A stretch of 64,000 bases of DNA from Squalus acanthias (Eukaryota), in the NCBI GenBank assembly GCA_030390025.1, contig CM059448.1, forward strand, positions 17,050,001-17,114,000. The letters run 5' to 3'. The notes below the pieces were generated by a model. It worked only from the letters and a program-made list of their open reading frames with translations. It had not been told where the DNA came from and searched no databases. The position numbers and the translations under genes are program-made. Positions 1,950-61,353 of the stretch are shown here, in pieces (positions within the stretch are counted from its first letter, which is position 1; the number at the start of each line of letters is the position of its first letter).

Positions 1950-1986
1950 AGTTAACGTTTCAGGTCGATGACCCTTCGTCAGAACT
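1950..1986 (-). ncRNA. Minimal type I hammerhead ribozyme-like motif in Penelope terminal repeat
   Basis: Reverse complement reads AGUU-CUGACGA-A-GGGUC-AUC-GACCU-GAAACGUU-AACU. Confidence 0.7.
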
Positions 1987-2792: not shown

Positions 2793-2829
2793 AGTTCTGA
2801 CGAAGGGTCATCGACCTGAAATGTTAACT
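2793..2829 (+). ncRNA. Minimal hammerhead ribozyme-like motif, helix III CpG-decayed (GAAAUGUU)
   Basis: agtt-CTGACGA-a-gggtc-atc-gacct-GAAAtgtt-aact. Confidence 0.6.
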
Positions 2830-3068
2830 CTGTTTCTCTCTCCACAGATGCTGCCTGACCTGCTGAGTATTTCCAGCATTTTCTGTTTTTATTTCAGATT
2901 TCCAGCATTCGCAGTATTTTGCTTTTGTATTCGATAATAGGGAAAGTTGGTTTTAAAAAAACAAAACCAAAAATACATTTATTTGTTATAAAGTGACCAT
3001 ATTGCCTCTTCTGCACAATGACTAACAGATTGGCAGTTTGATGACATGATTTCACTGTTTTTGTGCAG

Positions 3069-24372: not shown

Positions 24373-24729
24373 CTACTTGATGCAGTTTTTTTTTGCTTTC
24401 AGATCAGCAATGCAATAGATGGTTTTTAAAAACAGGGGGCCTTGTATTTGATTAGATCAGAATTTATTGAAAATGCAGGGTAAAATCTACCCACTGAATC
24501 AGTTTGGCACGTACCTTCAGCACTGGCAGGCTCTCATCAGTGAAGTGGAATATGAACAGTTTAAATGATTTCGTATTGATCCTCTAAAAGAAATGAAAGG
24601 AGAAAAACCTTGCATTTACACAGTGCCTTTCACGACCGTAAGAAATCCCAAAGTGCTCCACGGCCGATTAAGTACTTTTTGAAGTATAGTCACTAATATA
24701 ATGTATGGAAACGAGGCGGGAAGTGAGGA

Positions 24730-25068
24730 ATAAAAACAGAAAATGCTGGAAATCCTCAGCGGGTCAGACAGTATCTGTGGAGAGAGGAACCGAGTTAACG
24801 TTTCAGGTCGATGACCTTCCATCAGAACTGGAAAAAGTTAGAGATGTAACCAGTTTTAAGCAAGTACAGGAAAGCGGGGAGGGGAGGAAAGAACAGGGTG
24901 GAAGGCAGGAGTGATTAAATGACGAAAGGGATGATGGTGCAAGGCAAAAGGGGTGGTAATGGGACAAGTAAAGAAACAAAAGATGGGTCTGGAGGAGCTG
25001 AAAATGACAAAAGCAGCATCATTACCAGCAACTGCTGTCCGAAAAAATGGGAGCAATGGTTATGATCT
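24730..25068 (-). mobile_element. Penelope-like 3' terminal fragment with hammerhead-like core (CUGAUGG variant) and perfect 10-bp TSD
   Basis: Homologous to 1926-2270; core at 24793-24828; gaagtgagga at 24720-24729 and 25069-25078. Confidence 0.85.
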
Positions 25069-40124: not shown

Positions 40125-40649
40125 GTAAGTGTAAAGAAACTGGAAAGTACGCTGTAGCCGTAGTCCTGTTATTTATCTAACTTGGCCAAATGACGAGCCC
40201 ACGGCCACTTCGCCAAGAAATGGCTGAGCACAAGTTGGTCGCCGCGGTTGCAGTTATAACGAGCAGTGACTGAACTTCAGAAAGTTGCTCTTCGTTTGCA
40301 AAGTGCTTTGGGACATCCTTAAAATGTTAAAGGAGCTATAAAAATGCAAGTTTTTTTTATTTAATGGTACGGAAAGGTAATGCTACCTGCGTTTGATCAC
40401 AATTTGTATTATTTGCCTTTGACTGCCACATTGGCCTATATAACAACAGTGACTACAGTTCAAAACTACTTTATTGTCCGCGAGGTGCTTTGGAACATCT
40501 TGAAGATGTGAAAGGCACTTATAAAAAGGCAAGTTTTCTGCTTACTGCCAGTTTTATTGAAATGCATTTTTTGTGACACAAGAATTTATATAAATTCAGA
40601 GGGTTTTAATTTACTCTCTGCACCTTAACCCCATCAGTTCTTCTCGTAT

Positions 40650-40779
40650 AAAAACAAAATACTGCGGATGCTGGAAATCTGAAATAAAAACAGAAAATGC
40701 TGGAAATACTCAGCAGGTCAGGCAGCATCTGTGGAGAGAGAAACAGAGTTAACGTTTCGGGTCAATGACCTTTCGTCAG
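40650..40779 (-). mobile_element. Solo Penelope terminal repeat starting at the hammerhead core
   Basis: Minus strand CUGACGA-A-AGGUC-AUU-GACCC-GAAACGUU-AACU then the full terminal repeat; flanks tcagttcttctcgtat / tcagttcccctcatat. Confidence 0.82.
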
Positions 40780-40983
40780 TTCCCCTCATATTCCTGTTTG
40801 CATAATTTACTTGGTGATTGTTAACTAGTTTACTTTTAAATGGTTTTGTTGAAATGGCACGAGCAGCAATTTAATGGGGCATATTAACTAGCATTCTAAA
40901 AAGTACCACAGGTTTAAAAACATCAAATCCAGTGGGTTTTCTCTGTTGCCCAGCGAGCTAGGGTATTAAAATTACTCTGCTGG

Positions 40984-41140
40984 CAATGTTCTTGTTGAGC
41001 TGCGAGGTCGCGCAGCGCTCTGGAGGTCCCGCGCAGGCCAGTCACCGGCTTTTGAATAGAAAAATTGCACAATTTGAATGGGCCGCACAGCCCGTTAAAG
41101 GGGCTGCGCACCCCCCCCTATAAAATTACAGGGAATATCG
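40984..41140 (+). mobile_element. hAT-type MITE, same family as 4662
   Basis: caatgttc...ttacagggaatatcg; flanks tctgctgg / tctgctag (7/8). Confidence 0.75.
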
Positions 41141-42956
41141 TCTGCTAGCATGCTGAAGGTGCTGATTCTTTGCTGGGGCCTGGTTCCACAGATGCCTGAA
41201 ACCCTCCAGTACCTCACCCAGGTAAATCTTCATGTGTGAGCCCTGATAATGAGTGTTATTTAGCAAGCTGTTCACCCAGGGGTGGGGAAATGCATGACCA
41301 GACCAATCCTGTTCTCGCCTGACATTCGCAAATATACATTTCCAGCAGAGTTTCCCCTGCCAAGCCCAGGGCACTGAGGCAAATTTTTATGCCCCCCAGT
41401 GATGCCCTGGCTGACACCAGTTAACTCAGCACAGACCACCTATCAAACCTGGGACGATCAGTACCACACCTGGGTGATAGCAAAGTTTTGCATTTATGGT
41501 CACGAAAGAAAGAATGGAAGAACTTGCATTTATATAGTGCCTTTCACAACCTCCGGACGTCCCAAAGTGCTTTCCAGCCAATTAAGAACTTTTGGGTGGG
41601 GGTTAGATGAGAGGAGTAGTATTTGGGCGTTGCGGGACCCTGAGAATATTATCAAATGGGGATTTGGTAGGATTTGCTTTGCTGGAAGAATGAGAGCAAA
41701 TAGGCCAAATAATCTTGTGAAAGACTGTCATTGAAAAAGCATTGGAGGCATCGCTGAAATTATATCCCCATCGGCAGTGGATTTACAGGAGGCCCACCCC
41801 AATCCTACCCCTCCTGCTTACCATGATCTCGATCCTTTTTTGTATTGGGGCAAAATTATAATTTCTAAATGCCGAGTTTTATTTACAATGGTTCCTAAAA
41901 GGATTTGCTTCACTGCTTGTGGCTCAGGCACAGTTGGGCAGCATTGCAAAATTTAGGCTTAATTTTTATTTTCTTGTTGTAATATATAAGAAACTAGTAA
42001 CTTAGTTTAAGGTTTTTAAATCTTAGCTGCACAACATAATTTTCCAATAGTTTCCTCAAACTCTCGACCCTTTTTGTGTGTGTGTGTGTATCCCCTTAAG
42101 TACTTCTTTAATATTAATCCCATGTCCAAGTGCAGTCTGCATTGTGAAGGACTAAACCCAGCCGCACAATTTCCATTCTGTGCTGCAGTTGATGAAAACT
42201 GAGAAAATGGACAATTCCCAAAGGAGCGGGGCTTGCTCCTGGTTGAAATTACCAGCCGCGCCGCGCTGCCTGGACTTGAGCATGTACTGTTTGCTCTGTC
42301 TGGAGCTGTACAAACGGTATATAATGCAGCTCTGTAACATCTCAACAACTCCAAAATAGGATTTGGTGTTCTAATTAAAGAGAAAGGCTCTAGGTGGAAA
42401 GAACTCATTTATAAAATAGAGTTTAGTTTATGCCGCCGGTGAAGTAATTAATGAGTAGAGCAGCGTTTTTTGATAGAAAAATCAGAAGGGGGGGAAAAAA
42501 AAAGTGCAAGTTTAACCCTTCGAAGGTTGCAGGGCTTTATGTATCATTGATGAGGAAAAAACAGAAATATTGTACAAAACAATATTACAAGCGCAGTTAG
42601 ATTGAACATGTACTTGATATTAGTTACAAATGTGTCTGTATGAAATTCCTTTGCGCACTAGTTTAATGATGGTGTTGACCTGTTTATTTTAAATGGGTTC
42701 CACTTTTCTTAAAATAGTGGTCAGAGGCATTTTGTACAAATACATTCATTATTAATATGGCACAAGGCAATTTCAATCTATATGAGAATTGTACCCCTGT
42801 TAGGCTGATCACTGTTTACAGGGCAAGCAGAACGAGGAGTCCCTTTAGCCAGAAACACAAATGAGCAGGTTGTCTTAACACTATATTCAACACCTGTCTC
42901 CTTTCTATGCTGTTACTTAGTTTTAACCAGTTTTTATTTCCTCCGTAATAAAGATT

Positions 42957-43393
42957 AAAGAAAGAAAGAACTTGCATTTACGTAGAGCCTTTCGCGCCCT
43001 CCGGACACCTTCACATTCAATTAAGTACAATTACGTGTGGTCATTGTTGTTATGTAGGCAGCCAAGGATAGGTTCCACAAATAGCAATAAGATAAATGAC
43101 CAGATAGTCTAATTTTTGGTGGTGGTTGTTGAGAGATGAATGTTGGCCAAGACACCAGAAAAATTCACGCTGTTCTTCAAATAGTGCCGTGGGATCTTTT
43201 GCATCCACCTGAACAGGTAGACGGGATCTTGGTTTAAAGTCTCATCTGAAAGTCAACATCTCTGACAATGCAGCACTTGCTTAGTACTGTGCTAAAGGGT
43301 CAGCCTAGATTATATGCTTAAATCCTGCAGTGGGACTTGAATCCATGACCTCCTGACTCCGACCTGAGGGTGCTGCCTCTGAGCCAAGCTGAC
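42957..43393 (-). mobile_element. DeuSINE, diverged full-length copy
   Basis: (gaaa)n tail, Deu core, gtgggacttgaatcc B box on the minus strand. Confidence 0.8.
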
Positions 43394-43409
43394 CTCTGGT
43401 ATCTCGGTT

Positions 43410-43775
43410 ATTGAACGTGCTGTTTAGTTGGTAAGCATAGACGAGGAAGCTCCTAGGATCGACCTGAGTCTGTGTCGCGTTAGCTGGTCTGAACTAGGGT
43501 AGCAGTAAGGGTGCTGTGATTGGCTTCAGTGCCCCTAGGGTAGGGAAGGGGAAATCGGCCAGGGTTTCCGTTTCTGCCTTCTGGAAAGTGTACATGTTTT
43601 GGATGAAGGCCGAGAATAAGACCGTGCTCGATTGTGGTGCCCTCCCATGGTCAAGTAGCCTGCTCGCACTCATTGTCTCTGCTCACAAATAAAGAATGGC
43701 CACTTGGGTGAGGTACCAGAAAGTGGCTGGACCTTGTGATACCGTAACCCAACTTGCGATCGTGCTTTGAAGTGT
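43410..43775 (+). mobile_element. Family X SINE-like repeat
   Basis: ggaagctcctaggatcgacc..gttagctggtctg..ttggcttcagtgcccctaggg..aagaatggccacttgggtgaggtacc. Confidence 0.65.
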
Positions 43776-44039
43776 GTGTGTATATATATTTTGTCTGCAT
43801 CTATATGCCTGCTGCAGCTAATCTGCTCCTTGGCTTCTGAATAACCAGCCACAGGGTGATCGAAGAGAACTGTGCTGGTTGGTTTGTTGTTTGCTTTTAT
43901 TAATTCATTTATTTTTCCCTCCCTGGTTGGGGAACTGCATCCCCTTCCTTGCCAATCCTGCTGAGATCAGGACTTTTGTCTGAGAGAATTGCAGGCATCA
44001 TTTCCAGTCCCTGTGGCACAGTCCTTTGAAAACAACAAT

Positions 44040-44696
44040 GGGCTGGATTTTGCTCTCTGGCCAGCCGTTCATTACACTTGCAATTGCCCACAGACTTTCT
44101 ATGGGATTTTGCATTGGAACTTGCTGTAAATTAGAGAGCCAAACAGCACAGTGTTCTCTACAGGGAATGTGGGACCTGTGTGTATCTCCTTAACCAATCA
44201 GATGGGAGAATCGTTAATGAGCAGTGCAGAGTCTGAACCAGGAAGTGTGCGTGAGAATATTTAATTCAGTGTAAAATCTGGTACAGAAAGTGAAATAAAA
44301 AGAGGGAAAGGAAGATCGGATTGAGAGAGAGATGAAAGAAAAAGTTGAAAAAAAAATTAACTTTAATTTTTTTTTTAAATCTCTGATTAAAATCTGAAGG
44401 AATGAGACCCCACACTTACAAAAGTTAATTTTCAGTGCCAGAGAGGTTGTTTGGCAGTGGGTATGAATCACGTAAGGGCAACAACCTCACGCGCTTCATG
44501 TGTTTCAATGGTGCGTCTCTGGGCGAGATACCATTCCTGCACAGCTTCTGGAGGAGCAGGTCAACTTGGTCAGCAGCGTCCTGATTTCCGCGTTTAGTCG
44601 CACATGTGCGGTCGCCGGAAGTGGCTGTCCGATTTACACTTCAGTAACGGTGAACGCTGTTAGCCGCACTAATATTTGTACAGCAAAATCCGGCCC
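44040..44696. mobile_element. Non-autonomous PIF/Harbinger-like element with 3-bp TSD
   Basis: TIR gggctggattttgct / agcaaaatccggccc (14/15); aat on both flanks. Confidence 0.8.
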
Positions 44697-44812
44697 AATA
44701 TGTTGCAGCACGAGACCACGTGGGTAAAATAACCTCTTGCAATTTGGATTTGAATGGGTGATATTTGAACTGGATCTTTACGTACCACCAGGTCCAGATA
44801 TACACACAACTA

Positions 44813-45194
44813 TTACATTGTTCCAATGAAGCTGAACGTAAGCTCGAGGAACAGCACCTCATCTTTCGATTAGGCACTTTACAGCCTTCTGGACTCAACA
44901 TCGAGTTCAACAATTTCAAACTATAACCCCTGCCCCCATTTTTCATGCTGTATGATTTTGCCATCCCCATTTGCAACATTTTATCTTTCCTGCCTCTTAC
45001 ATAAGCACAGTATGTTCCTTCAATTCCTTCCTTCCTTCCCCCCCCCCCCCCATGTTTCTGCACCTGCTTAATATCTGTTACATCTCCAGCTTTTTCCAGT
45101 TCTGATGAAGGGTCCCAGACCTGAAACGTTAACTCTGTTTCTCTCTCCACGGATGCTGCCTGGCCTGCTGAGTGTTTCCAGCATTTTCTGTTTT
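44813..45194 (+). mobile_element. Penelope-like 3' end (GIY-YIG C-terminus plus terminal repeat) with 14-bp TSD
   Basis: HCSNEAERKLEEQHLIFRLGTLQPSGLNIEFNNFKL*; tatacaca(c/t)aacta at 44799-44812 and 45195-45208. Confidence 0.88.
45098..45134 (+). ncRNA. Minimal hammerhead ribozyme-like motif, intact core, sense to the ACACA pre-mRNA
   Basis: agtt-CTGATGA-a-gggtc-cca-gacct-GAAACGTT-aact. Confidence 0.7.
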
Positions 45195-45641
45195 TATACA
45201 CATAACTAGTTTGCCAAGAAATGTGTACTTTGGGTCTGGATTATGCTTATTGGTGGGGAGGGGAGAGAGTCAGCTGGAAATATTTGTCCCTTAGTTTGTT
45301 GAATCACTCATGCTGAAATTGAATGTAATGAAAGAAAATCTGATCTTTTGCAAGAGGTTAATAATGTTGGAAAGATGATTGATATGTGCTGGACTGACCA
45401 TATTCAGAGATCTGCTGAGCAATGAAATAATCTGAGGCCTTTTCTGCTGGATCAGGCCTGCATAGAAAGTGCTGTCATGCCTGGACCAAGTGCTAGGAGT
45501 TGGGAAGTGATTTGGTACATTGGAGTTTGGATCAAGACGGTGTTTATCTACTTTAATATTAGTTAGTATTGAAATACTTTAAGTTGTAATGAACATCATT
45601 ATTATAATAGTTATTTGGAACTCCCTGGTGGATCAGTTGTT

Positions 45642-46104
45642 AAGAAAGAAAAAGGTAGAAAGACTTTCATTTATATAGCTCCTTTCACGACCACCGGATG
45701 TCCCAAAGCGCTTTACAGCCAATGAAGTACTTTTTGGAGTGTAGTCACTGTTGTAATGTAGGAAATGCGGCGGCCAATTTGCGCACAGCAAGCTGCCACA
45801 AACCGCAATGTGATAATGACCAGATAATCTGTTTTAGTGAAGTTGATTGAGGGATAAATATTGGCCAGGTCATTGGGGATAACTCCCCTGCTCCTCTTCG
45901 AAATAGTGGCATAGCATCTTTTACGTCCACCTGAGAGGGCAGATGGGGCCTTGGTTTAACGGCTCATCCAAAAGACGGCACCTCCAACAGTGCAGCACTC
46001 CCTCAGTACTGCACTGTAGTTTCCGCCTAGATGTTTGTGCTCATGTCTCTGGCGTGGGACTTGAACTCACAACCTTCTGACTCCGAGGCTGAGCCACAGC
46101 TGAC
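45642..46104 (-). mobile_element. SacSINE1-type DeuSINE, near full length, inserted in the head of a family X copy
   Basis: Complete tail, Deu core and tRNA head; host head ctccctggtggatcagttgtt resumes as actgctgagagtggaactgagccatacag. Confidence 0.85.
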
Positions 46105-46239
46105 ACTGCTGAGAGTGGAACTGAGCCATACAGGCCAACACGATTCTCTGTACCAGGTTACATGATCTCCATTGCAGATGTTGTTACCCCTCGGGTAAGG
46201 AAAGGAGTACTGCTGAAAGTGCACACATATGATTGTGGT

Positions 46240-47028
46240 CGTTGTCTTCTTAGGCAGTCCCTCGGAACCGAGGATGACTTGCTTCCACACTAAAAATGAG
46301 TTCTCAGGTGACTGATGAGTCCAATGCAGGACCTACAGTCTCTGTCACAGGTGGGGCAGACGGTAGTTGAAGGGGTGGGTGGGTGGGGGTGCTTGGGTTG
46401 ACGTGCGCTCCTTCCGCTGTTTGCGCTTGGCTTCCGCTTGCTCCTGACGAAGAGACTCGAGGTTTTCGGCGACTTCCCAGATGCTTCTCCACTTTGTGCG
46501 GTCTTGGGCCAGGGATTCCCAGGTGTCGGTGGGGATGTTGCACTTTTTCAAGGAGGCTTTGAGGGTGTCCTTGAAGCATTTTCTCTGCCCCCCCTGGGGC
46601 TCTCTTGCCGTGTCAGAGCTCCGAGTAGAGCGCTTGTTTTGGGAGTCTTGTATCGGGCATGCGGACGATGTGGCCCGTCCATCGGAGCTGATCGAGCGTG
46701 GTCAAAGCTTCGATGCTGGGGATGTTGGACTGAGCGAGAACACTGACGTTGGTGCGCCTATCCTGCCAATGGATTTGCAGGATCTTGTGGAGGCAGCGTT
46801 GGTGGTACCTCTCCAGTGCTTTAAGGTGCCTGCTGTACATGGTCCATGTCTCTGAAGCATACAGGAGGGCGGGTATCACTACTGCTCTGTAGACCATGCG
46901 CTTGGTGCTGGGTTTGAGGTCCTGGTCTTCAAACACTCTCTTCCTCAGGCGACCGAAGGCTGCACTGGCACACTGAAGGTGGTGTTGGACTTTGTCATCG
47001 ACGTCTGCCCTTGTTGACGGTGACTTGT
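46240..47028 (-). mobile_element. RTE-clade LINE 3' end with 10-bp TSD
   Basis: ORF 46613..46936(-) VYRAVVIPALLYASETWT...LRWTGHIVRMPDTRLPKQALYSEL, then KKCNIPTDTWESLAQDR; tgattgtggt at 46230-46239 and 47029-47038. Confidence 0.9.
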
Positions 47029-47884
47029 TGATTGTGGTGGGGGTACAGGATTGGACTTGGTTGTAACATGTGAATACTCAGTCTAGGCTCACATAAAGAG
47101 CAGCCACTTGAGTGAGGCTCTGAACGGCAGGCAGTGCCCAGAGAACTGCACAAGCCAGCATCTTCAGAAAAAGGGGGAAGAATCCATTTTATCTGCCAAA
47201 CGGTTGCAGGAGCAACATTTTGAAAGCAGCACCCCCATCAGTTAGGCCATTGCACCTTACATTTAGTAGCAAGTTAACCTACTTTTTATCTTTTTGACGG
47301 ATCATGGTTCATAAAGCTGCTGATACAGTAGTATTATATTTGATCAGATTTTATTTTGTCGGGGTAAATTATCCTCTGGGGACCCTCATTTGGGCACCTG
47401 ACCGACTTATCCTGAAGTGCTGAAGAGAAGCAGCCAGAAGACCCTGTGGTCCAAAGATGGCTTGGGGAGGAGGGGCTGTAAAGAGAAAGGACATTTGCCT
47501 GCTTAATAGGGCTGTCCCTGGGATCCATGGGGATGCTTCATTCCACAGGGGTCTGGGGCAAGCGCTCATGCCAGGTTTCCGAAGATGTCCCTCTTCTGAG
47601 CTGCCCAGCAGTCGGCAGTGGAGGAAAGTGAGCCCCTCGCGCCTCATTGCCGCTGTGATGCTAGGCCTGAGCCTATGCCAGATTCATGCCAGCGATGTAA
47701 CTTTGGGAAGAGCCGGGAAATCCTGGAGTAGTGCACTGAAGGTGACGATATGACGTAACTGGTCTCCAGTCCACCCCCTCCTGGTCTCCTGCACCAGGGA
47801 ACTAAATACAACGAATAAGAACATTCACCCTATTGTGTTGCTGTAACATGGTAAGTGATGACCATTAACTTTAAAAACATCAAG

Positions 47885-48325
47885 TAAAAATGAAAGAACG
47901 TGCAATTATAAAATCAATTATTACGTCCTCTTGACATCATAAAATGCTATATAACCAATTAATTACTTTAAGTCCAGGTAGTTATGTAGGGGGGGAAAAA
48001 AGCAGCCAATTAGAGCCTGGCAAGGTCCCACAAACTGGAAATGAAATGAAATGAGCAGTCAATCTGTTTCTTCTGCTGTGGTGTTGGTTGAGTCAGCAAT
48101 GTTGGCCAGGCCACTGAAAGAACTTCCTCCTCTTTTTTGAATAGTGAGATTTTTTTACATCCACCTGAACAGAAAGACAGGGCCTCGGTTTAATGTCACA
48201 TCCGAAAGACATCACCTCTGACAGTGCAGCACTTCCTTGGTTCTGCACTCCAGTATCAATTTAGATTATGTGCTCACATCCTGGAGTGGGGCTTGAACTC
48301 ACGACCTTCTGACTTTAGAAACACG
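47885..48325 (-). mobile_element. DeuSINE, diverged copy
   Basis: Deu core catccacctgaacag..gggcctcggtttaatgtc..ccgaaagac and B box. Confidence 0.75.
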
Positions 48326-49094
48326 GGCTAAAGTAGACCAATATTAAAGAATACAGCCCCTTCAGATGCTGAGTATGGCCCCTGAGGGGTGGCGGGTTTG
48401 CACCTTTGTCCAGTAGAATTCAAGATCACCATTTTCAGTTTTGAACAAAAACATGACCAAGGAGAATGAATTTGGTGACATTGGGCAGTGCAAAATTGAA
48501 CTTTTGTTTTTTCTTGAGTGGGCGTGCAGTATTGTATCGAATCTTATATGATTTAAGATAACAAATTGAATTTTAAAGCCTACTGTAGTTTCTTTGTTGT
48601 ACTGGTAACCGGTGAAACTAAATGATTATCAATAATCATTTAGAATAATTATTGTCATTTTTCTTTTGGGTTGAAAGGGACGACAGAGTTCATTTCTGTG
48701 ACTAAAACACTTTTTTTTTAAGGGTTGAATTAGAATAATTTTGCCACACCGACTATGTACTGAGGCTAAGAAGAAATGTGCTCCTTTAATGTATTTCTGC
48801 TGAAATCCTATTGTGACACAAAACAAACTAAATCCTGCAGGATTTGTGAAGATCCCATTGTAACTGTTAAACCTCCACTGGCTATCTTCTGGAGTCTTCT
48901 CTAATCCTTTATGATTTACACTTTGTTTGGGATACAGTAGGATTTTTATACTCTTGATTTTCCATCATTATTTAGACACAAGATTGCCGACTGAAGTAAG
49001 ATTTCTGCAGAAGCACGTTGTGCAGTGAAAAAGGCTTTATTTGGGGAAATTCTATATTTTATGACCACAATAATGTGACCATTGAACACTGTTC

Positions 49095-49512
49095 CCTGCA
49101 GCCTCCTTCTGAAAACATTGACTGTTGGTGGGATATGCTGCTGGCAGCTCCCAGTGCCTTGTCCCTGTGGCCAGTCTTCATATTTGAGCCGAGACCATGT
49201 GAGTCTAGTGGGCTATTATTGTTCCATAGGAGGCATCACTGTTGATGTCAATCCTGTCCTCACCGGGTGGCCAAACGATGGGCACTTTCCAGCAGGGGTT
49301 GCTGGGTGGTGCTCGAGAGAACAAACCCTGGATGAGTTTCTAGCCCCCTGCCTGGACCTGGGATGCTGAGGTCAACTGTGGTGCCCAAAGATCTGCCCTG
49401 GCTGAGATCAGTTGGTTCAGCAAAGGCCAGGGACTGAACTGGAAACCTTCCTGGTCTGTACGACGCATTTACACACTGGGCAGTGCATTTACCAACTGAG
49501 CCACCAGGGGAG
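49095..49512 (-). mobile_element. Family X SINE-like repeat with well preserved head
   Basis: Minus strand tggtggctcagttggtaaatgcactgcccagtgtg...cagaccaggaaggtttccagttcagtccc (A box, then B-box-like). Confidence 0.65.
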
Positions 49513-50309
49513 GTTGTTTAAGATAGTTTCCTTAAATATGTTTGGGTGTGATATCTTCCCTGATTAGATTTCAGTAAATAAACGAACAGTATGCGCAGTG
49601 GTGGGGATGAGACTTGTTTAATATGGCCATGGGTACTTGCTGCTGTGGCAGCAAACTATGTTGCTGCAGTGCAAGAGGTCTTGAGAGCACATGAGGGTAA
49701 ATTCAGCAAGGCCCAGCTCCAGGTGCAGAGATGGAAGATGGCAGTGCAGAGTTGAGTCGTAGTGTTCAAGCTCACTCACTGTTCTGCATTCCTGTTTGGA
49801 GCGGTTCCATAGCAAGAGTCTTGCCTCGCTGAATTTACCCTATTTTAATCACAGGAGGTTGTGGAGCTATTTTATAAAAAGTATTCCCAGCTCTCAAAGG
49901 GTTAGCGTTACCAGTTATCCTATTGTGGGATTTAGTTTTGTGGAATACTGTTTTCCAGACAGGCTATAGAACCAGTGGGGAAGATTTTGTCTTTCTTTTT
50001 TGTAGCAAAATCGTACCTGTACGTCTAACGGTAAGCTCACAGTTTCACAACAAATAACAAGTAGAGGAAACCTTGCCCCAAATGAGAACTGTCAGTGGGG
50101 CAACTGACTTTCATGACATTATTTCAAAATGCGCTTTTGAACAGCCACATATTCTTGCCATGTAATTTGGAGGGATTTGCAATTTATCTTGCTCGGCTCT
50201 GTAATGCTTGCTCCAAAGTCATTAATAGACTCCGAGAGTCAGGTACGTTGGTAACGGTGCTGATAACGTGTCACTATCTGATTTCCTATCGACTAATAAA
50301 AAGCGCTAT

Positions 50310-50692
50310 ATGATTTGCAATTTTCAGGATGTGCCAAAGCGCCCAATGAATTACTTTTTTTAATTGAAGTGTAGTCACTGTTGGTATGTAGACAGACAAC
50401 TTGTGCACAGCAAGGTACCACAAACAACAAATGAGGTGCATGAACAGTTGACTGTTTTTGGTGGCGTTGGTTGAAAGAGAACTATTGGCCCAGACATCGG
50501 GAGAACCGTATCCCTTCGCAAAGTGCCATGTCTGTCTGAACAGGCAGTCAGGGCTTTAGTCCAAAAGATGGCATCTCTGACAGTGTAGCACTCCTTCAGC
50601 ACTAGATTATGTGCCTAAGTCCTGGAATGGGGCTTGAACCCACGATCTTCTGAATCTGAAGTGAGAGTGCCACCACTCAGCCAGGCTGGCAC
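50310..50692 (-). mobile_element. DeuSINE, diverged copy
   Basis: tgaagtgtagtcactgttg block, Deu core, ggggcttgaaccc B box. Confidence 0.75.
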
Positions 50693-51004
50693 TTGCTATT
50701 AAATTTCTGTTTTTAATTCAGTCAGTAAATCTATTCCTACATATTTTCTTGTCAGTTATTGTTTGCTGACTAAACTTAGGGGACAGAGATTAAACGCTGA
50801 GGTCACATTTTAATCATCGATTTTATTGTGTAACAGATTTATGTAGTTTTTTTGATACAACAGGAATATAATTAGTACAACGGTCTCTGATTTCCTGGAA
50901 GAGACAATCTTTTTGTAGACTAAGGTCTCACAACTGACTATATTAACTTGTTAATTAATTTTTTTTTCTAGAAATCACAAAGGGAAGCAGTGGCTGGGTG
51001 TAAG

Positions 51005-52508
51005 AGCGTCCTTGGACTAGATCTAGTTATGAGTAATGAAATAGATCAAGTAGATGAATTAAAAGTGGATGAGCACCTCTGGAGTAGTGACCATAATATT
51101 GTAAGAATTAAGGTCAAAATAGACAGGAGAAAAGTTAGTACAAAAACAAGGGCTCCAAATTGGAGTAGGACAGATTTTAGAAAGACGGAGATTGAGCTAG
51201 CTGAGGTGAGTTGGAAAGATAAATTGGCAGGCAGGACTGTAGATCAACAATGGGATATTTTCAAAATGGAGATTGCAAAGATGTAGAATAAATATATGCC
51301 ATTCAAAAAAAAAGACTACTTCCAGTTTCAGAATGCTGTGGATAAATAGAGGTTAGAAACAAACTGAAATTGAAGAAAAGGGCATATATGGCTTATAGAT
51401 ATGATAAGAGCAAACATGAGAAAATAAGGAAACCGGTTAAGAAAGGCATAAGGAAACCACTAAGGCAGTATGAGGAGAGAATCTTAAAAATATAAAAACA
51501 GTAAAGTATTCTACAAAAATGTCAGTAAAAAGAGAATTGTTAGACTGACTTGGGACCCATGAGATGGGACCCATGAGTTGAAGATAGTGAGATAGTAGAG
51601 GCTGTGGAAATTGACTGGAATACTTAACAAGTGCTTTGCTTTAGTGTTTACAAAAATGAAGGGTATTGGGGAGGAAATGGTTCAGTGAGATGAGATGTAT
51701 AATAAATAAAAGGAAAGTGTTCGAGAAGTTAGTTAAACTAAATGAGAACAAAGTTCGGGGACTTGATGGGATACATCCAAGGATCCTGAGGGAAATAGGG
51801 GAGACCCTAGAAATTATATTTTAGGCTACTATTGAGAGTCGATGTGTGCAAGAGGACTGAAGAATGTAATGCCCGTTTTCAAAAAGGGAGGCAGGGCTAG
51901 TCTGGGTGATTACAGTCCAGTTTAACATCTGTGGTAGGGAACTGTTGGGAATCTTTAATTAAAGACAAAATTACTAAATATCTAGATGGAAAGAAAATAA
52001 TTAGAAGCAACCAACACCGATTTCAGAAAGGAAGATCATGCTTGACAAACCCGATAGCGCTCTTTGAGGAGGTGATAGACATGGTGAAGGGGGGAAATGC
52101 AGTGGAAGTGGTGTACATGTACTTTCAAAAAGCCGTGACAAAATACCTCACACGAGATTACTGGAGAAGATTGGAAGGAATGGTTCAAGGGAGGGTAGCA
52201 AATTGGATTAAAAATTTGTTAGAAGTGAGAAAAGAGAGCAAAATTAAGAGCAGTTTGTCAGAGTGGTTGGAAGTGGATAGCTGTGTCCCGTAGCGTTCTA
52301 TTCTGGGACCACTTCTGTTCACTGTGCACATTAATGGTTTGGATATAGGGCTAGAGATGTGTCCAAATTTATAAACAATACTAAAATAGGATGCATAGTA
52401 AACCATTCTGATGAAGAATAAAGGAAGCTGTAAGGGAATACCTGCAAGTTGAAATTCAAATTCAGTAAATGTGAGGTGGGGAATGTTGATTTAAAAAAAT
52501 AAAATAAT
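51005..52508 (+). mobile_element. CR1 LINE ORF2 remnant (endonuclease end and RT); 3' end resumes at about 54575-54712
   Basis: LDLVMSN..EHLWSSDHNIV, GLDGIHPRILRE, QHRFQKGRSCLTN, VVYMYFQKA. Confidence 0.88.
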
Positions 52509-54574
52509 GGGCTGGAAATTGCTGCAATGGCGAATTTGGCGGCTAATTGGACTTTTATGCTTATCATTGATATTGCACGATATTTGCGCTGCAAATTGCT
52601 GGAACGTCAATCCAGTAACGGCGCAGCGCTGTCAATGTTGCATCTGGGACCTCGTAGACGTCCTATGAGGACCTCTCCGAGGAGCTGCACATCTGACGGC
52701 TGGGCCTCTTCAAGGATGCCATTGCGCATCTTGGCCTACTTTATTAAGATTTGCAGACTCGCTTCACTGCCACAACTCCTCTGTGGCAATTAAATTGTAG
52801 ACAACCCTCACTTTTTTTTTTATGGCTCCGGATCCTTCCAGGCTGCCACTGGGATCCGTGCATCATTAACCAGGGAGCTGTCGGCGCGTGCATCGGGCAG
52901 GTGACGGACACCCACTTTCATAGAGCAGCCGAACTCATTCACTTCGGCATCAGCCCCAGGCGGCAGAGCCGGAGTCTTCTACAAGATAGTTGGATTCACC
53001 AGGGTGCAGGCTGCCATGGTGGCAGGCATGTGGAAGCAGTTCTATTCCCAGGATATCTATTCCTCTGTGGTATCTACACTCGTCAATGCAAGGGGCATCA
53101 GAGGGCAGCTTCTGTAGCAGCTCCTCATTGACTGATCCACTGCAGTGGCAGCACCTCCGTCTTTGGATCATAGCAGGACCTTGCCAGGAATCCTCAGCCG
53201 TGTGAAGAAGTCTGAACCTATGGAATAGTCTTATTTCCTGACTTACTTTAATGTTCAGAAATAACAAATCATGAGACGAGTGCCCAGTGTATTTCAAAGC
53301 AAACATTTCTTTTATTGCAAGCTAAAGGGGTGGAAGGTTGGAGTACAAGAACATAAGAAATAGGAGCAGGATTAGGCCATATAGCCCTTCGAGCCTGCTC
53401 CGCCATTCAATAAGATCATGGCTGATCTTCGACCTCAACTCCACTTTCCCGCCTGAACCCCATATCGCTTGATTCCCTTAAGTCCACAAGTCTATCGATC
53501 TCGGCCTTGAATATATTCAACGACTGAGCATCCACAGCCCTCTGAGGTAGAGAATTCTAAATAATCACAACCCTCTAAGCGAAGAGATTTCTCCTCCTCT
53601 CAGTCCGAAATTGCCGACCCCTTATCATGAGACGATGCCCCCTAGTTCTAGACTCTCCAGCCAGGGGAAATAGCCTTTCAGCATCTACCCTGTCGAGCCC
53701 TCTCAGAATCTTACATGTTTCAATGAGATCACCTCTCATTCTTCTAAACTCCAGAGAGGATAGGCCCATTCTATAAGGTTGTCAGTTAAGGAGTGTGTGG
53801 CATTTGTGATGGGAGAGGTGAATTAAAAGGTGTGTGTGTGTGTTGGGATTAAAGAGTGGAGGAAGGTGTTTTGAGAGTGCTGTTTTAACAGGGTGAAGCA
53901 TGTGATGGTGGTTAGGGAGGAAAGGGGGAATGTGGCGACATGCTACCCTTGCCTGCCCTTGTGAAGTGTTTTCACTTCTTTCTGCACTGTTGATCAGTGC
54001 TGGCACGAGTGAGTTGGGAGCCAGTGCCAACTCCTTGCAGGCGGCACGACTGATATTGGTGTCCGGCTTCGTGAAAGAAAGACCGAGGAGTGCGAGGCGC
54101 CTGTCTTATACCTCTTGGAGAAGGGATTGGAGGTCTTCATCAGAAAAGCAGGTTGTGCCTCTTCTGCCTGCTGTCCTAGCGTGGTACCCAGTGCGCACAG
54201 CTGGCACCTAAGTGGCCACGGTGGTGCCAATCTGGACTGCTGCTGTGGGTAAGAATTGTTGTCGAGTGATTATGTGGAAATCCCCAGTAAAACCACTTGT
54301 CACCTGCTTGCCTCACCATCAGACGGTGTTTTGCTGCTGCCAGGAGTCTGCAGAGTGTTTTTAAAGAGTTATGCCGTTGTACGTATGCTTCCGGGGAGGG
54401 AAGGATTGAAGGTGGAGGTGTCGGCAACTTACACAGTTTCTACACTCTAAGTTACACCAGAGCTGCGCCAAGAATATTTAAATTAACTTACCCCAGGAAA
54501 CTTGCGTGTGGCTCCCTCTGCTGGTGAATGGCTTAACTTGCCAGCGTTACTGTCATTGAAGAAACTCCGGGCTC
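52509..54574. mobile_element. Degenerate Harbinger DNA transposon with convergent HARBI1-like transposase (+) and Myb/SANT-like (-) remnants
   Basis: Plus ~52800-53035: GSGSFQAATG / DPCIINQGAVGACIGQVTDTHFHRAAELIHF / FYKIVGFTRVQAA; minus ~53945-54160: FSDEDLQSLLQEV*DRRLALLG...AACKELA.../QQCRKK; imperfect TIRs (15/23). Confidence 0.72.
53345..53774 (-). mobile_element. Young CR1 3' end inserted in the Harbinger fossil
   Basis: ORF 53575..53769(-) LGLSSLEFRRMRGDLIETCKILRGLDRVDAERLFP-like; aagaacataagaaatagg tail; aaggttg on both flanks. Confidence 0.9.
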
Positions 54575-54774
54575 ATGTCAACATTTAAGAATAGGGTAGA
54601 TAAATGGTTGATGTAACGGTGAATAATGGGAACAGAGCGGGCACATGGGATTAGAACTACTGCTCGTATGGAGAATAAACTCCAACACGGATTGCTTGGG
54701 CTGATTCTATGAACCGGGGCAGGTTTCTAAGCTACGTTAGTGCGCCTTGACCGCTATTTATACCAAACCCTTGA

Positions 54775-54916
54775 GGGCAATTTTAATCTAACCCAGCGGG
54801 CAGGAAACTGACGGGATTGAAGTCAACGGAAAGTAAAATCAAATGGGGTGCGAAACGGACAGCCGATCTGATCCCATCAGTTTCCCCACTGAGTGGGTTG
54901 AGGTTTAAAATGACCC
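54775..54916. mobile_element. Fold-back MITE-like element
   Basis: gggcaattttaatctaaccc..ggaaactgacgggat pairs imperfectly with atcccatcagtttcc..gggttgaggtttaaaatgaccc. Confidence 0.6.
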
Positions 54917-55427
54917 GCTTTGTGTTGACGTGAAATAGTTTCAGCTTCGCATCGACACAAACTTGTGTAACTGGGGAAGTTGTCCAATTCAGAGTTTGGC
55001 AAGTGATGCAAGAGCTCCCTGTCGGGAGCGCAATGTCATAAAATTGTTCCATATATACGCTTTGAGTTAACAAATAATACCGGGGACCCGAGATCCCACT
55101 TTTAATGAAAAACTTGATCTGTCGTTCTCTTTAATTAATGACCCACTAACAAAAGTACGTTCTGAGAAATTGCGTGTTCCAAAGCTGCGCATTTGCTAGT
55201 GGACCTTTTTTAATTACAGAGAAAGATGGGCATTCACCTGCTTTTCATTATAAAAGGAAATTTTGGCCCTTGAGCATTTAATCCTGGCTAATTCTAAAGC
55301 ATGGTGTTAAAACTGGAGCAGATTGTTTCTGATTGCTTTGTGCAATCTATGCTGCTGTTGCAATGTTTGTGTGCTGGTGCTTGGCAAAACCTTTACTTTT
55401 TATCTCTGTGGTTAGTGTGGAGAAGAG

Positions 55428-55546
55428 CAATGTTCCCTTTACGTTGCGCTCTGCAGCTCCCGCGCGGCCGGCTCACTGGTACTGTGAACGGGCCGCGCAG
55501 CCCCTTAAAGGGGCTGTGCACCCAAAAAGAATTAAATTGAACATTG
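55428..55546 (+). mobile_element. hAT-type MITE, same family as 4662
   Basis: caatgttccc...gaacattg; flanks gagaagag / gagaggag (7/8). Confidence 0.75.
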
Positions 55547-56110
55547 GAGAGGAGGTAGGTTTTTCATGCTGCTCATGTGGGGGGGAAACTTTGGAAAGCA
55601 CAGCCTCTACTTTCTGTACCCTTTCCAGTCACGGTTTTGACTGTGGAGCCGATTTGCCTCTGCTTTGTGCCTAGGAAATGTTCAGTTCATGGGCGCAAAG
55701 CAGAGGGAAAAGGGACAGAGACCCAATGTCACGGGTCTTCAACCTCTTCATCTTGTCCTGCAATTTCTGCTGACCTCTGCAAACACAAGCTCAAGTTGTT
55801 TAAACCTGCTCCTAACTAGAACTTAGGCAAAATAAAATCAGGGCCTATTTGTTTGCTGTTGGTGCTAGTGGCATCAATTGGTTCTGAATTAACATCCAAT
55901 TTCTTTCAAAGAGCTTTGTTTTTTTTTACCATATTACAGGACAGGCGAAGGGATTTAAGGAGGGAATTTCAGCGAATGGGACATAGGTGGCTGAAGGCAT
56001 GACTGCCAGTTGTGGGGTGAAGGGAAAGGCTTATGCACCAGGGGTCAGGGTTAGAGGAACAGGGAGGGTTGGGGAAGCCGTTACAGAGATGGGGAGGGAT
56101 AGATTTAAAC

Positions 56111-56387
56111 CAGGGGCGGTGTTAGGACTGCAACCCGGCAACTGCATGGGGTCCTGAGCCTGTTGGGGATCCCAGACAGTGAAAGGACATCTTCAAAATA
56201 GTAATAGCTGATCATTTTGTTAACTTTTTATATTGTCTGTTGTTAAACATGCCTTTTTCATGATTGTACGTGTGTGGATTTGCCACCAGATTATGTAGGC
56301 AGTATTTAGTATCATTGCCCAGTAAAATGTAGGGGCCCCAAACCAAACCTTTGCACAGGACACCTCACAAGGCAAACGCTGCTCCTG
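56111..56387. mobile_element. Second hAT-like MITE family
   Basis: caggggcggtgtt / aacgctgctcctg imperfect TIRs; flanks atttaaac / attaaac. Confidence 0.5.
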
Positions 56388-57258
56388 ATTAAACGCTACC
56401 ACGTTGTACTTGTGTGCTGGGAATTTTTGGTAGATTTGTCAGGGGATGATTATTGCTGAAAATCTGTCTACTAGCCAAGGGGCAAGTCCCATTGAAATGA
56501 ATGAGAAGGGCAGGAGACGGTTAAATACTTTGATATCTGACCATGTATTTTCCAGGTGCCATTTTCTATTGTTTCCTCTAGGTGGCACATCATCCCACTA
56601 AAGATTGAATTGCCTGCAGTTTAACTTCCTTTTTTTTTAGGAGGTCGGTGGGGGGGGGATTTAACTACAAAGTAGCTGCTTCAGCCGCATTGAAAAACAC
56701 AAGCAGTATTCCCATTTACACATGCCCCGTCAGTTGTCTTTGCTTCTTGATTTGAATAGATGCATTTTTTCTTTTATTTTTCTGAAGACTTGCACCTGTT
56801 AAAGCTGCCACTTTGGATCGAAGTATTTCAGGCACATTTAAAAATTGTGTTATTAAGTCCATAAGCAGATTTAAATTTTCTGAAAAATACAGACCTTAGT
56901 TTTAAAACATTTTTTCAGGGTTTGCTGCAAAAATTTACTAAAGAGGAAGTCTAGTCACTAGTCAGTGTGAGTTTACAAACAACTAGTGTTCAAGTTGCTG
57001 TGTCCCACAATAACAATTCCTATTTTTAAATTTTAATGAGAATTTTTCCACTTACTGAACATCTTATTCTGACTGCAATCCATTTGCAAGAATTTTTATT
57101 CCTCTTTTTTCCTTCAGTTATCTCCCCTTTCCTCCTCTCCTGAAGGCCCTGACTTCTTGCTGAAGTTTGGTCACTCTCCAGTACCTCATCCAAGGAGCCA
57201 TCCTTCATGTGTGATTTTAGATGGGCAGTGTCAACAGGTAATCCAACTGTGGAGGATA

Positions 57259-58350
57259 CGACAACAACTTACATTTATATAGCGTCTTTAACATAGCAAA
57301 ATGTCCCAAGTGGCTTAACCAGAGCGATATTAATAAAATTTTTGGCACCAAGCCACAGGAAGGCGAGATCAGGCCTTGATCAAAGAGGTAGGTTTTAAGG
57401 AGCATCTTAAAGGAGGAGGGAGAGGTTTGAGGAGGAAATTCTACAGCTATGGGCCAAGGCAGCTGAAAGCATGGCCACCAATGGTGGAGCAATAAAATTG
57501 GGGATGTGCAAGATGCCAGAATTGGAGGAGCGCAGAGATCTCGAAGGCTTGTAGGGCTGGAGGAGGTTACAGAGATGGGGCAGGGCGAGGTCATGGAGGG
57601 AATTGAAAACCAGGATGAGGATTTTAAAATTGAGGCGTTGTCAGACTGGGAGCCAGTGTCGGCCAGCAAGCACAGGGGTGATCACGGGTGAACGGGACTT
57701 GGTGCGAGTTAAGATACAAGCAGTAGAGTTTTGGATGAGCCCGCGTTTATGTAGGGTGGAATATGGGAGGCCGGCCAGGAGAGCATTGCAATAGTCAAGT
57801 CCAGAGGTAATAAAGGCACGGATGATTGTTTCAGCAGCAGATGAGCTGAGGCGGGGGCGGAGTCAGGTGATGTTACGGCGTTGGAAATGGGCAGTCTTGG
57901 TGATGGAGCGGATATGTGGTCGGGAGCTCATCTCGGGGTCAAACACGAAACCAAGATTGCGAACGGTCTGGCTGCCAGGGATGGAATCGGTGGTCAGGGA
58001 ACGGAGTTGCGGATCAAAGGCAATGGCTTCTGTATTCCCAGCGTTTAGTTGGAGGAAATTTCTGCTCATCCAATACTGGATGCCGGACAAGCAGTGTGAC
58101 CAATCAGAGTCCGTGGAGGAGTCAAGAGAGGTGGTTGAGATGGAGCTGAGTGTTGTCCGCGTACATGTAGAACCTGATATTGTATTTTTGGATGATGTTG
58201 CCGAGGGGCAGCAGATAGATGAGAAATAGAAGGGAGCCAAGGATAGATCCTTGAATGGAACCGGGCAAGGGTAGTTCCACCCAGCTGGACGACGAAGGAG
58301 AGGCTTTGGAAGAGGATGGTGTGGTCAACTGTGTCGAAGGCTGCAGAAAA
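57259..58350 (-). mobile_element. L2 LINE 3' portion inserted in a family X copy
   Basis: Minus ORFs SAAFDTVDHTIL, QGSILGSLLFLIYLLPLG..FYMYADNTQL, WMSRNFLQLNAGNTEAI; (caa)n tail. Confidence 0.9.
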
Positions 58351-58887
58351 GACGGTCGAGTCCAATCCTATCTTGGTATCCTTAGCTATTTCCTGCCCAC
58401 AGCCCTTCCAGCAGTGGTCGGTGAATAACGATCAGGCATAAGAACCTTGCTCAATTTTTCCTCCCATTAACTTAGAGGTGTTGGGCCAATTGTAGTATCT
58501 CTGCCATCGGCCAAGATCAGTTAATTCAGCGCAGGTTGGAGATCAAACCTGGTTCTTCCTGGCCTGTGTGGCTCAGCTGAGTAGTGCCATCAGCTGAGAC
58601 ATTTTAAAGATTTAATATCGATGTCCACAATTGGGCATTTTGGCAACAATTGTCCATTTTGCACTGCTAGTCGCTGGGTGGGGATCTCACTGGAATATGG
58701 AGATCAGCATCACTGTACTTGTAAACTCAATGTGTAGTCCTGGGGTTTGGTCTCCTCTTGTTGTTTCACTCAAATTCTTGTCAGCCACCGACCGTATCTG
58801 GTTGAAGGAGTGAGCGGATGACCTGCCCCAAGGCTTCTGCCATAAGCTACTGCTGCCAGTCTTTGTGAGAGCAGACTGGAGACCTTA

Positions 58888-60610
58888 GCCGTGATTTTGC
58901 CGACCGAGGCGGGGTCGTTGTAACAGTCCCAGTCCCAGTCCCAGCCCGCTGCCTACTGCAGCCCGCACTCTCCAAGTGATTTTACATTAATAGGGCTTGT
59001 TAAGCCCGCCCTGCGAGGTTTCCAGCCAATTAAAAGGAAGCGGGTCTGATGTCATTTGATGACGCGTCATCAGCCGGTTTCCTTAAAGGGGCCATGTCCA
59101 AATTGATTTTGATCGTTCTACTGTCAGTGTTCTGCAGCATTGAGGTGCTGCAGAACACAGACAAGCGGTGCACGGCTGCACCCAGGCTCTCCCATGACTC
59201 TCCATATGCTTATGGAGGGACTCACGGCATGCAGGGAGGTTCTCGACACCTCCCCAGGAGATCAACGCAGCCTGGTTGCACATTGCACAGGAGGACACAC
59301 GCAGGGATGTGGTCAGGAGGACCAGGCTGCAGTGGTGCAAACCTTTCAATGATCTCAGTAGATCACAAAAAGTTACTGCAAAGCCACACTCAACCTCATC
59401 CTGCTGTGCCTCTGATCACATCCCCATCACTCTGTCTTCCCTACCCTATTCCTGCACATCTTTACTCACAACAACTTACCTTGCACCTCCACCCATCCCT
59501 CTCTGTCTACATTATCACTTCCCCATTTCACTAGCCACCCCTCACACTCACCGTCATCCTACTGCAATCATACCAACTAACAACACACAAAGGTAGGCAC
59601 TTGGGTGGTTTAGCCAATGTTTATGTGAAGTTTCTGGTAATGTGCTGTCAAACATTGAAACCTTTATTTTCAGCACTTTGCGTTCTTGGACAGATTTGTG
59701 TGCACCTTTGGAAGTGGCTTAGTGAGTTGCAGTGAATGGTGAGACGTAAGGGTACCCCCCCCCCCCCCCCCACCCCGCAATGGTGATGAGTGTGAAAGGA
59801 ATGGCTTGGACATTGTAGGGATGCTTTATGGTGTTGGTGTGGGGTGGTGCCAACCTGGCGCGTCATGTGGCATCCAGGGTGTACTGCGCCAAGGTGAGGC
59901 CATCCCTGGCCTCCTGGGCAGCGATGTGGTCGGGTGCTGATGCTGCACAGGACACGGCATCAGTTGATTGCGGAGAAGGCTGCTGGTGGTGGTGTTGCTG
60001 CTGGTGATAGTGTTGGGGCTGATCTTGGTGGGATTCTGAGGACCAAGGTGAGATATTTTCAAGGGTAATGATGCTGATGGAATAGATGGCAGGTTGAGGT
60101 TGAGATGACAGAAGCGATCTGTCAATGGTGAGAGAGGTTGTTCCAATGAGGTAACACTGGATAGAGAGTTGGCTCCAAACACTTGCAAGCTGCAGAAAGC
60201 TCAATCTGTCTTCCAGATGCAGAAACCAACAGTTTCTGAGCTATGAAAGTGAAGAGCTGTAACATGGGATCTTTATACAACGTTGGCAGCTGTCAGGTCA
60301 TGGGATAATTCAATGCTGAATCCACTTACGCCAGGGTGAGCTGACTTGTTCCCCGAGCAGCGGGTAACCTGTGGGGGAGCACGTAAAATTGAAATGTAGG
60401 CTTAAAATAAGTTAATTGGATGTTAACAACCCATTTAATGATGTGAATTGCTTCCCCCGCCGCTTGGTGTCTGGTCTGTTCAGCGCCGACAGACCCGACA
60501 CCTGGGAGACTCGCGTGGAGGCAGGTTCCCTACCCGCTGTCAATCTTTGCTATTTTGACAGCTGACCTGCCTCCGAACCCGCCCTCTGAGCGCCGGCAAA
60601 ATTCAGCCCC
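58888..60610 (+). mobile_element. Harbinger-derived element with Myb/SANT-like remnant
   Basis: Ends gccgtgattttgccg / cggcaaaattcagcccc, tta on both flanks; frameshifted AAPRLSHDS..LMEGLTACREVL..HIAQEDTRRDVVRRTRLQWCKPFNDL at ~59170-59365. Confidence 0.7.
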
Positions 60611-60839
60611 TTATCTCTGATTCTCACTGCCTTCTCTGTGGAGCATACTGTTGCCTCTATTTGACACCTGCACTGCATGGCCATTACAGGCTTTTTTTTT
60701 AAAAAAAAGAACTTGACATAATGCATTGCAATACCATATTTTGTAAGTGCCGTATTTTAAGATCCAAGTGTAATGGGCATTCATAGCTTTAATTTTGGAG
60801 AATTTTTTTAAAAGTCTGCTGGACCAACAAAACCCAAGT

Positions 60840-61260
60840 GTCAGCTTTGTTCATTTGATCGCAGTTATGTCTCTGATTCAGAAGGTTGTAGGTTCAAACA
60901 CTCTCCAGGACTTGAGCACATAATCCAGGATGACACTTCAGTGCAGCAGTGAGGGAACATTGCCAATTTGTGGATGAGATGTAAAATCAAGGGTCCCATC
61001 TGCCTGTTAAGATGGATGTACACGATCGCATGACACTACTTGAAAAGCAGAGAATTCCCCATGCATATTGGTCAACATTCCTCCCTTAACGTCAACCACC
61101 ACCATCAGAAACACAATAGCTGGTCATTTATCTCAATTGCCATTTGTGGCATCTTCCTGCCATGATTGCCGACCTAACTGTGACTATAACTGCGAAGCAA
61201 TTCATTGTGAAATGCTTTAAGATGTGATTAGGCACTATATAAATGCATGTTTTATTCTTT
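60840..61260 (+). mobile_element. DeuSINE, old copy, sense orientation
   Basis: tcagaaggttgtaggttcaaac head, Deu core, ggcactatataaatgcatg tail; ends about 95 nt before an exon. Confidence 0.75.
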
Positions 61261-61353
61261 AGGCACATTCTAATATTTGTTTTCATAATGTCCAGAACAT
61301 TCGACATTCCGCCTTGCTGACCTCAGTTTGTTTGGGATTTTATTTTTGTTTAG

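Follow-up and report, generated by a model that had tools for sequence, protein, structure and literature searches.

A minimal hammerhead-ribozyme motif of a Penelope-type retrotransposon in an ACACA intron of the shark Squalus acanthias, probably carried as a neutral passenger

The ACACA Locus and Its Motifs

The window analyzed is a stretch of 64,000 nucleotides from Squalus acanthias (GCA_030390025.1, contig CM059448.1, forward-strand positions 17,050,001 to 17,114,000), to which all coordinates without a locus or contig label refer. A tblastn search with vertebrate acetyl-CoA carboxylases identified 14 exons on the + strand between positions 491 and 63716. Since the exons show higher identities to ACC1 than to ACC2 (88–90% to ACC1 proteins versus 39% to skate ACC2 in the case of exon 13148–13294), the gene is best assigned to ACACA (ACC1). 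Chimaera ACC1 was among the matches, and ACACA extends over at least G000:C25:16966322-17205148. The motif starting at 45098 had been described in the initial annotation as a sense copy in an ACACA intron; the exons on the + strand and the intron surrounding the motif (Table 1) bear this out, and the motif should thus be included in any full-length ACACA pre-mRNA. In the DNA contigs of two other organisms (G and H), a joint to the opposite strand at 44765–44804 suggests that a small inversion, relative to the S. acanthias genome, lies just left of the insertion carrying the motif.

Five motif stretches had been annotated, all of which are present at those coordinates and on those strands: the relaxed core pattern occurs five times in the window, versus a mean of 0.06 and a maximum of 1 in 300 shuffles. 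The full motif, claimed for all five, exists only at 1950 (−) and 45098 (+). The copy at 24793 (−) has a substitution in the core, that at 40747 (−) begins at C3 and has a mismatched A-C pair where helix II starts, and that at 2793 (+) has an altered palindrome. The palindrome in the latter, said to be lost, does read AUGU, but it is only weakened, pairing via two G.U wobbles at a cost of about 4 kcal/mol (+2.6 kcal/mol for AUGU versus −1.7 kcal/mol for ACGU in a forced 4-bp duplex). AUGU and the loop AUU are both CpG-type changes, and since 10 of 43 young copies of the family carry a CpG-type palindrome change, the 2793 copy is typical. The motifs at 1950 (−) and 2793 (+) lie in stretches 94% alike, which most likely are the two arms of one head-to-head insertion and not independent copies.

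Table 1. Positions of the gene, repeat and motif features in the window, with the loci of the second family.
Feature	Position	Strand	Remarks
Host ACACA intron (GT..AG), 21.2 kb	40125..61353	+	coding exons end at 40124 and start at 61354
5'-truncated Penelope-type insertion, 388 bp	44810..45197	+	carries the 45098 motif
Pyrimidine-rich tract	45068..45099	+	73% C/T over 30 nt, ending CAG at helix I; candidate sequence similar to a 3' splice site
Minimal type I hammerhead motif	45098..45134	+	intact
Helix I, 5' strand AGUU	45098-45101	+	
Core CUGAUGA	45102-45108	+	
Extra A	45109	+	
Helix II GGGUC/GACCU	45110-45122	+	loop CCA; G.U closing pair
GAAA	45123-45126	+	
Palindrome ACGU	45126-45129	+	
Helix I, 3' strand AACU	45131-45134	+	predicted cut directly before, after 45130
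Antisense arm of probable head-to-head insertion	1924..2376	-	intact motif 1950-1986
Sense arm of the same probable insertion	2731..2929	+	motif 2793-2829 with AUGU; 37-nt tail 2893-2929
Older antisense copy	24716..25006	-	motif 24793-24829; core A9 to G (CUGAUGG)
Antisense copy in the intron of the 45098 copy	40647..40779	-	core present; helix I 5' strand missing
Second-family loci	L056, L065, L073, L075, L092, L095, L102, L111, L125, L138, L142, L144, L151, L026		

Hammerhead Identity of the Motif

The minimal type I hammerhead anatomy initially proposed for the 45098 copy was recovered in every part: CUGAUGA, GAAA and GUU supply the core CUGANGA...GAAA...UH, helix I is 4 bp long (AGUU/AACU), helix II consists of five pairs, and the palindrome lacks a loop 3 (ACGU here, AGCU in a second family). 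The cut predicted at 45130/45131, between GUU and AACU, had also been read correctly. The extra A at 45109 is an A in 43 of 43 young copies, and an extra letter is present in all 40 hits of a general hammerhead descriptor.

These features are those of the minimal hammerheads (min-HHR) described in metazoan Penelope-like elements (PLEs) by Cervera and De la Pena (2014; PMC4209133): type I, a 4-bp helix I, an extra nucleotide between 9 and 10.1, palindromic 15.1–16.1 without a loop 3, presence in the two terminal repeats, solitary truncated copies by the thousand, and close pairs on opposite strands. The shark motif differs from that description in that its 5-bp helix II closes with A-U or G.U and not with G10.1-C11.1. 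Among the 43 young copies the closing pair is A-U in 26, G.U in 14, G-C in 1 and another combination in 2; the 45098 copy has G.U and thus lacks G10.1-C11.1, which is a recurrent min-HHR feature lying outside the search descriptor.

A search with Rfam models, proposed as a check on the motif, yielded nine matches even at E<=10, none of them to a hammerhead family. The general descriptor gave 40 hits in 1.37 Mb versus 0 in each of three shuffles, 18 belonging to the Neptune-like family that carries the 45098 motif and 22 to a second family (Table 1). The latter, often found as opposite-strand pairs, has other helices (helix I CAC/GTG or TAC/GTA; helix II GGAGC/GCTCC with G-C closing), the palindrome AGCT and the triplet CUU around the same core and extra A, which supports the hammerhead reading.

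The non-CpG changes shared among source subfamilies of the first family are absent from the 10 core sites and the 8 helix I sites, versus 11 of 30 sites affected upstream and 5 of 57 sites downstream, and those within the motif preserve pairing (A or G opposite U; U or C at the position of cleavage). The ribozyme core thus seems to be constrained only between source elements. Judging from its sequence, the 45098 motif is a genuine min-HHR sequence of the class described in 2014.

Carrier Element and Copy Number

The motifs had been assigned to terminal repeats of Penelope-like elements, and the carrier does prove to be of the Penelope type. The insertion at 44810–45197 consists of the ORF's last 37 codons, from its endonuclease end, followed by the terminal repeat, is 93–97% identical to the best-scoring copies of the family and stops short of the 37-nt tail of the element. 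A 1004-aa open frame is present in about 35 of the 119 scored matches (counted by eye). At three loci fetched from the genome, tandem 3.2-kb units are 99.9% alike, and a fourth locus shows an inverted arrangement; each terminal repeat carries one motif, so that three motifs flank the 1004-aa frames of a tandem locus. The family looks recently active, given the 1004-aa frames, the near-identity of the tandem units and the many exact core matches.

In the element protein, RVT_1 (residues 527–654, E 2.6e-5) and GIY-YIG (906–976, E 2.6e-4) were detected, both just under the Pfam cut-offs, together with the motifs YIDD and YIGET; a comparison of the ORF with the PDB gave 0 matches. RT and EN are separated by a linker that reads CTRRRCNTC at residue 870, which fits CX2-5CxxC. 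The single ORF with RT and GIY-YIG and this linker point to an EN+ PLE of the Neptune/Nematis type. The EN+ Neptune elements described by Craig et al. (2021; PMC8557442) similarly have a single ORF with an RT, a zinc-finger-like linker and GIY-YIG at the C-terminus, and tandem as well as inverted terminal repeats; the shark element is tentatively placed with Neptune and not with Nematis, based on the linker together with the reported occurrence of Neptune in vertebrates.

Another close counterpart, reported by Frangieh et al. (2024; PMC11167929), is Poseidon_Ac (PAc) of Anolis carolinensis, in which the ribozyme likewise overlaps the 5' end of the ORF and which has two end points with an optional tail of 30–40 nt. 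In the shark, the ends of the family copies cluster at reference positions 162–170 and 193–199, i.e., before and after the 37-nt tail. PAc differs in belonging to the Penelope/Poseidon clade, whereas the shark element has the Neptune/Nematis CX2-5CxxC linker, and its start codon follows G8, whereas the in-frame AUG of the shark element lies within the core and exists only with U at position 7. The AUG-to-cut distance of 26 nt equals the Anolis figure, which was taken as a coincidence, the AUG lying elsewhere in the motif.

The open frame spans the whole motif (L043:1707-4718; window 2572–2937 and 45052–45197), and all the subfamily variants of loop II observed (xxC+GA, xxA+GA) retain an arginine codon; a dual constraint of coding and RNA structure on loop II is possible. 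Among the young copies in the fetched gene regions, 15 of 53 have their 5' end at the 5' edge of the motif (reference 58–67), beside an acceptor-like AG. This cluster may mark the 5' end of the element RNA or a splice junction; in Drosophila virilis, an intron end at helix I has been described (PMC4209133), with which the acceptor-like tract of the shark (Table 1) can be compared.

Genome-wide, 50,040 places match a pattern with a fixed core and a free helix II, versus 1 for the reversed control, so that the family numbers at least 50,000 copies in the S. acanthias genome, which is a lower bound. A tighter pattern gave 12,735 matches, and the youngest subfamily, with the triplet GUC, has 3,270 exact copies. 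The coelacanth and Xenopus are credited with min-HHR counts of 4,000 and 9,000, in that order (PMC4209133), versus at least 50,040 in the shark, the counting methods being different.

The cleavage triplet GTT is also a repeated insertion site of non-autonomous DNA transposons with 12-bp TIRs and 3-bp target duplications, which we take to be PIF/Harbinger-like. There are 665 such matches, with GCC/GGC/CCC ends in 89 of the 100 matches listed; among the 14 insertions fetched (L183-L196), the 5' half of the motif resumes beyond the transposon in 8 and the GTT duplication is perfect in 4. The general flank preference of these transposons resembles the ribozyme GTT site, and one of them is present in unrelated sequence at 44040–44696, just upstream of the 45098 insertion.

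Orientation and Decay of the Inserted Copies

Orientation was scored in 1,274,478 bases, delimited by exons, from 19 genes, namely ACACA, its paralogue on C13, and the myosin and ITPR/RYR genes; a search with ANF_receptor gave no usable gene intervals. Loci found via core patterns (L001-L022, L042-L046) were excluded from the unbiased counts, and 12 of 99 family hits, lying outside the gene bounds, were dropped. The remaining hits comprise 43 sense and 44 antisense copies, and those of the second family 11 and 11 (counted by eye). The sense-versus-antisense count of intact cores called for in the initial annotation was therefore carried out on these 19 genes: strictly intact motifs are sense in seven cases and antisense in three (p=0.34; 95% interval of the sense share 0.35–0.93), or six and two without ACACA, with no sense depletion. 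Taken together, the three comparisons exclude strong selection against intact sense copies, and mild selection in either direction is compatible with this small sample. An intact sense copy occurs in 6 of the 19 genes, so that the presence of one in ACACA, singled out as noteworthy, is commonplace; nothing sets the ACACA copy apart from its family.

Decay was analyzed in the 43 of 99 hits with a bit score of at least 110 and with core and flank covered. Non-CpG changes amount to 17/430 (4.0%) in the core and 84/2367 (3.5%) in the downstream flank (p=0.67); CpG changes found in four or more copies were binned as shared, and CpG rates are not meaningful in this analysis. The excess conservation of the core over the flanking repeat, on which the initial annotation had made its reading depend, is thus absent among inserted copies. 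Since 10 of 37 young intragenic copies are still strictly intact at 3–4% divergence, chance survival of the motif must be common.

The 3' junction of the 45098 insertion is common to DNA contigs of three other organisms (G, H, and I; two studies), which end 30–32 letters inside the repeat, and at the 5' end one contig extends 30 letters into the insertion. The flanks differ by about 4–5%. The shared junction indicates that the insertion predates the split from these organisms and, together with the flank differences, that the 45098 copy is not very young.

Predicted Folding

The folds are equilibrium predictions. In the bare 37-mer, the probability is 0.98–0.99 for helix II and roughly one half for helix I; once 30 nt of the natural flank are added, it drops to about 0 for helix I, and GAAA is drawn into a competing hairpin. 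A helix III between two molecules contributes −1.7 kcal/mol; for a dimer, folding with a single active site gives −10.4 versus −19.3 at the dimer minimum, about 9 kcal/mol apart. When 4.6 kb of the intron were folded, 45102–45139 paired with 40779–40742 except in the loop, covering the core and the cut site. The predicted duplex between 45102–45197 and the antisense copy 40647–40779, 4.3 kb upstream, has an energy of −172 kcal/mol, although over such a distance pairing may be delayed, or proteins may prevent it. Of the 37 young intragenic copies, 20 have a partner on the opposite strand within 5 kb.

The 45098 copy had been predicted to be inactive alone because its helix I is only about 4 bp long. 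Inactivity does seem likely, but this length is normal for the class (4–5 bp), and cleavage is predicted to be hindered more by the missing helix III, by competing structures and by pairing with the antisense copy. In the ACACA paralogue, one intron holds an intact sense copy belonging to the youngest, GUC-bearing subfamily (L059:1155; G000:C13 about 87321095); it has no antisense partner within 28 kb and is a better candidate than the 45098 copy for cleavage in a host intron.

Discussion

The most probable reading, to which we give a probability of about 0.85, is that the 45098 motif is a minimal hammerhead in a truncated copy of a Penelope-type element, carried as a neutral, non-cleaving passenger. 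The ribozyme would be kept up only in source elements, in which the tandem 3.2-kb units would bring two motif copies and the element protein onto one RNA. A single copy stranded in an intron would have no partner for helix III, is predicted to adopt an alternative fold and to pair with the antisense copy of the same intron, and in this case also has no tail, the probable binding site of the element protein. With no partner, misfolding, antisense pairing and no tail, any cleavage would likely be too slow to disturb splicing. Against this reading stand the intact state of a copy that is not very young, the lean of intact copies toward sense (seven versus three, not significant) and the probable existence of partners in trans.

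Published data on related ribozymes can be set beside this reading. Monomers of min-HHRs are reported not to cleave, and dimers to cleave weakly (PMC4209133). The PAc ribozyme of Anolis is described as requiring the element protein and as dispensable for insertion in vitro, and the account given of it includes no RNA-seq ends at the cut site (PMC11167929). Slow intronic ribozymes are said to have no effect on splicing (Fong, 2009, as cited in PMC10919898), and one of nine Xenopus retrozyme dimers is described as having cleaved.

It is rather unlikely that the motif does not work even in the source elements and is a relic retained by the overlapping reading frame, which would be compatible with the passenger reading. 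The 1004-aa frame does pass through the motif, 40 of 43 copies have A-U or G.U as the closing pair of helix II, versus the G-C described as highly conserved in the class (PMC4209133), and no recurrent two-sided compensatory change was found within the family (one copy has G-C). Against a relic stands the second family, which shares the core and extra A while having another palindrome (AGCU) and other helices I and II (40 descriptor hits versus 0 in three shuffles), and the shared subfamily changes of the first family spare the core and helix I and keep the pairing.

We consider it improbable that sense intronic copies are completed in trans by the element protein, the element RNA or both, and occasionally cut host pre-mRNAs. 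The Anolis ribozyme is reported to cleave only with the element protein (PMC11167929), the shark family looks recently active, its youngest subfamily having the GUC triplet in 3,270 exact copies, and the 45098 core is intact. Putative RNA contigs of related organisms span the repeat and the start of the ORF, and the apparent abundance of family RNA in putative RNA runs of these organisms suggests that partners in trans probably exist. Arguing against cleavage in trans, intact sense copies are not depleted, helix III is weak and the one-site dimer lies far above its predicted minimum, the 45098 copy has no tail, and 169 copies genome-wide, versus 50,040 cores, show a three-letter break immediately ahead of the cut. 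Three of the five such breaks inspected are inversions and two are plain junctions. In a genome-wide search for fossils of cleaved templates, i.e., copies starting at the cut site, no sharp or large peak was found, both controls being confounded, by 2-nt slippage deletions (832) and DNA-transposon insertions (665), respectively. Protein-assisted or trans cleavage at 45098 is unlikely to matter. Broader still is the proposal that the element protein switches on thousands of sense intronic hammerheads in trans and cuts host pre-mRNAs such as that of ACACA, which we regard as highly unlikely; if it were true, the protein of a retrotransposon would be a genome-wide trigger of intron cutting, and protein-assisted cleavage of host introns in trans would give transposons a new means of influencing the expression of host genes.

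In two head-to-head insertions (L178:530-730, L179:509-715), the four helix I letters form the junction overlap, and one arm starts at the predicted cut; about a fifth of the 100 cut-site matches listed show this signature. Snap-back of the cDNA through helix I would explain such junctions without cleavage.

A domesticated ribozyme or splice element tuning the splicing of ACACA, perhaps via the acceptor-like tract, is very unlikely: the insertion junctions common to three other organisms, the pyrimidine tract and AG overlapping helix I, and the conserved hammerheads described in amniotes (RECK, CTCL/C10orf118 and DTNB; PMC6155905), likewise in sense in introns of protein-coding genes, speak for it, but the 45098 copy is a typical one, 93–97% identical to others and without the loop contacts or helix III of canonical hammerheads, the acceptor-like tract is element sequence present in every longer copy, and no GT..AG joint ending at helix I was found among the matches listed from contigs of related organisms. 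The RECK-type ribozymes differ in being conserved across species and in having tertiary contacts (PMC6155905), whereas the shark copy is one of tens of thousands that are decaying and has no helix III.

Our literature search found no paper on Penelope minimal hammerheads in sharks; a 2026 preprint on hammerhead retrozymes includes a survey of PLEs with one chondrichthyan among 31 vertebrates, as far as its account goes. The stranded copy in ACACA and its relatives add a shark family to the class described in 2014, and intact sense copies of this family appear to be tolerated in introns. With its near-identical tandem source elements, GUC and GUU variants, a closing pair other than G-C, and tens of thousands of copies available for statistics, the family should be useful for studying the role of Penelope ribozymes in vivo.
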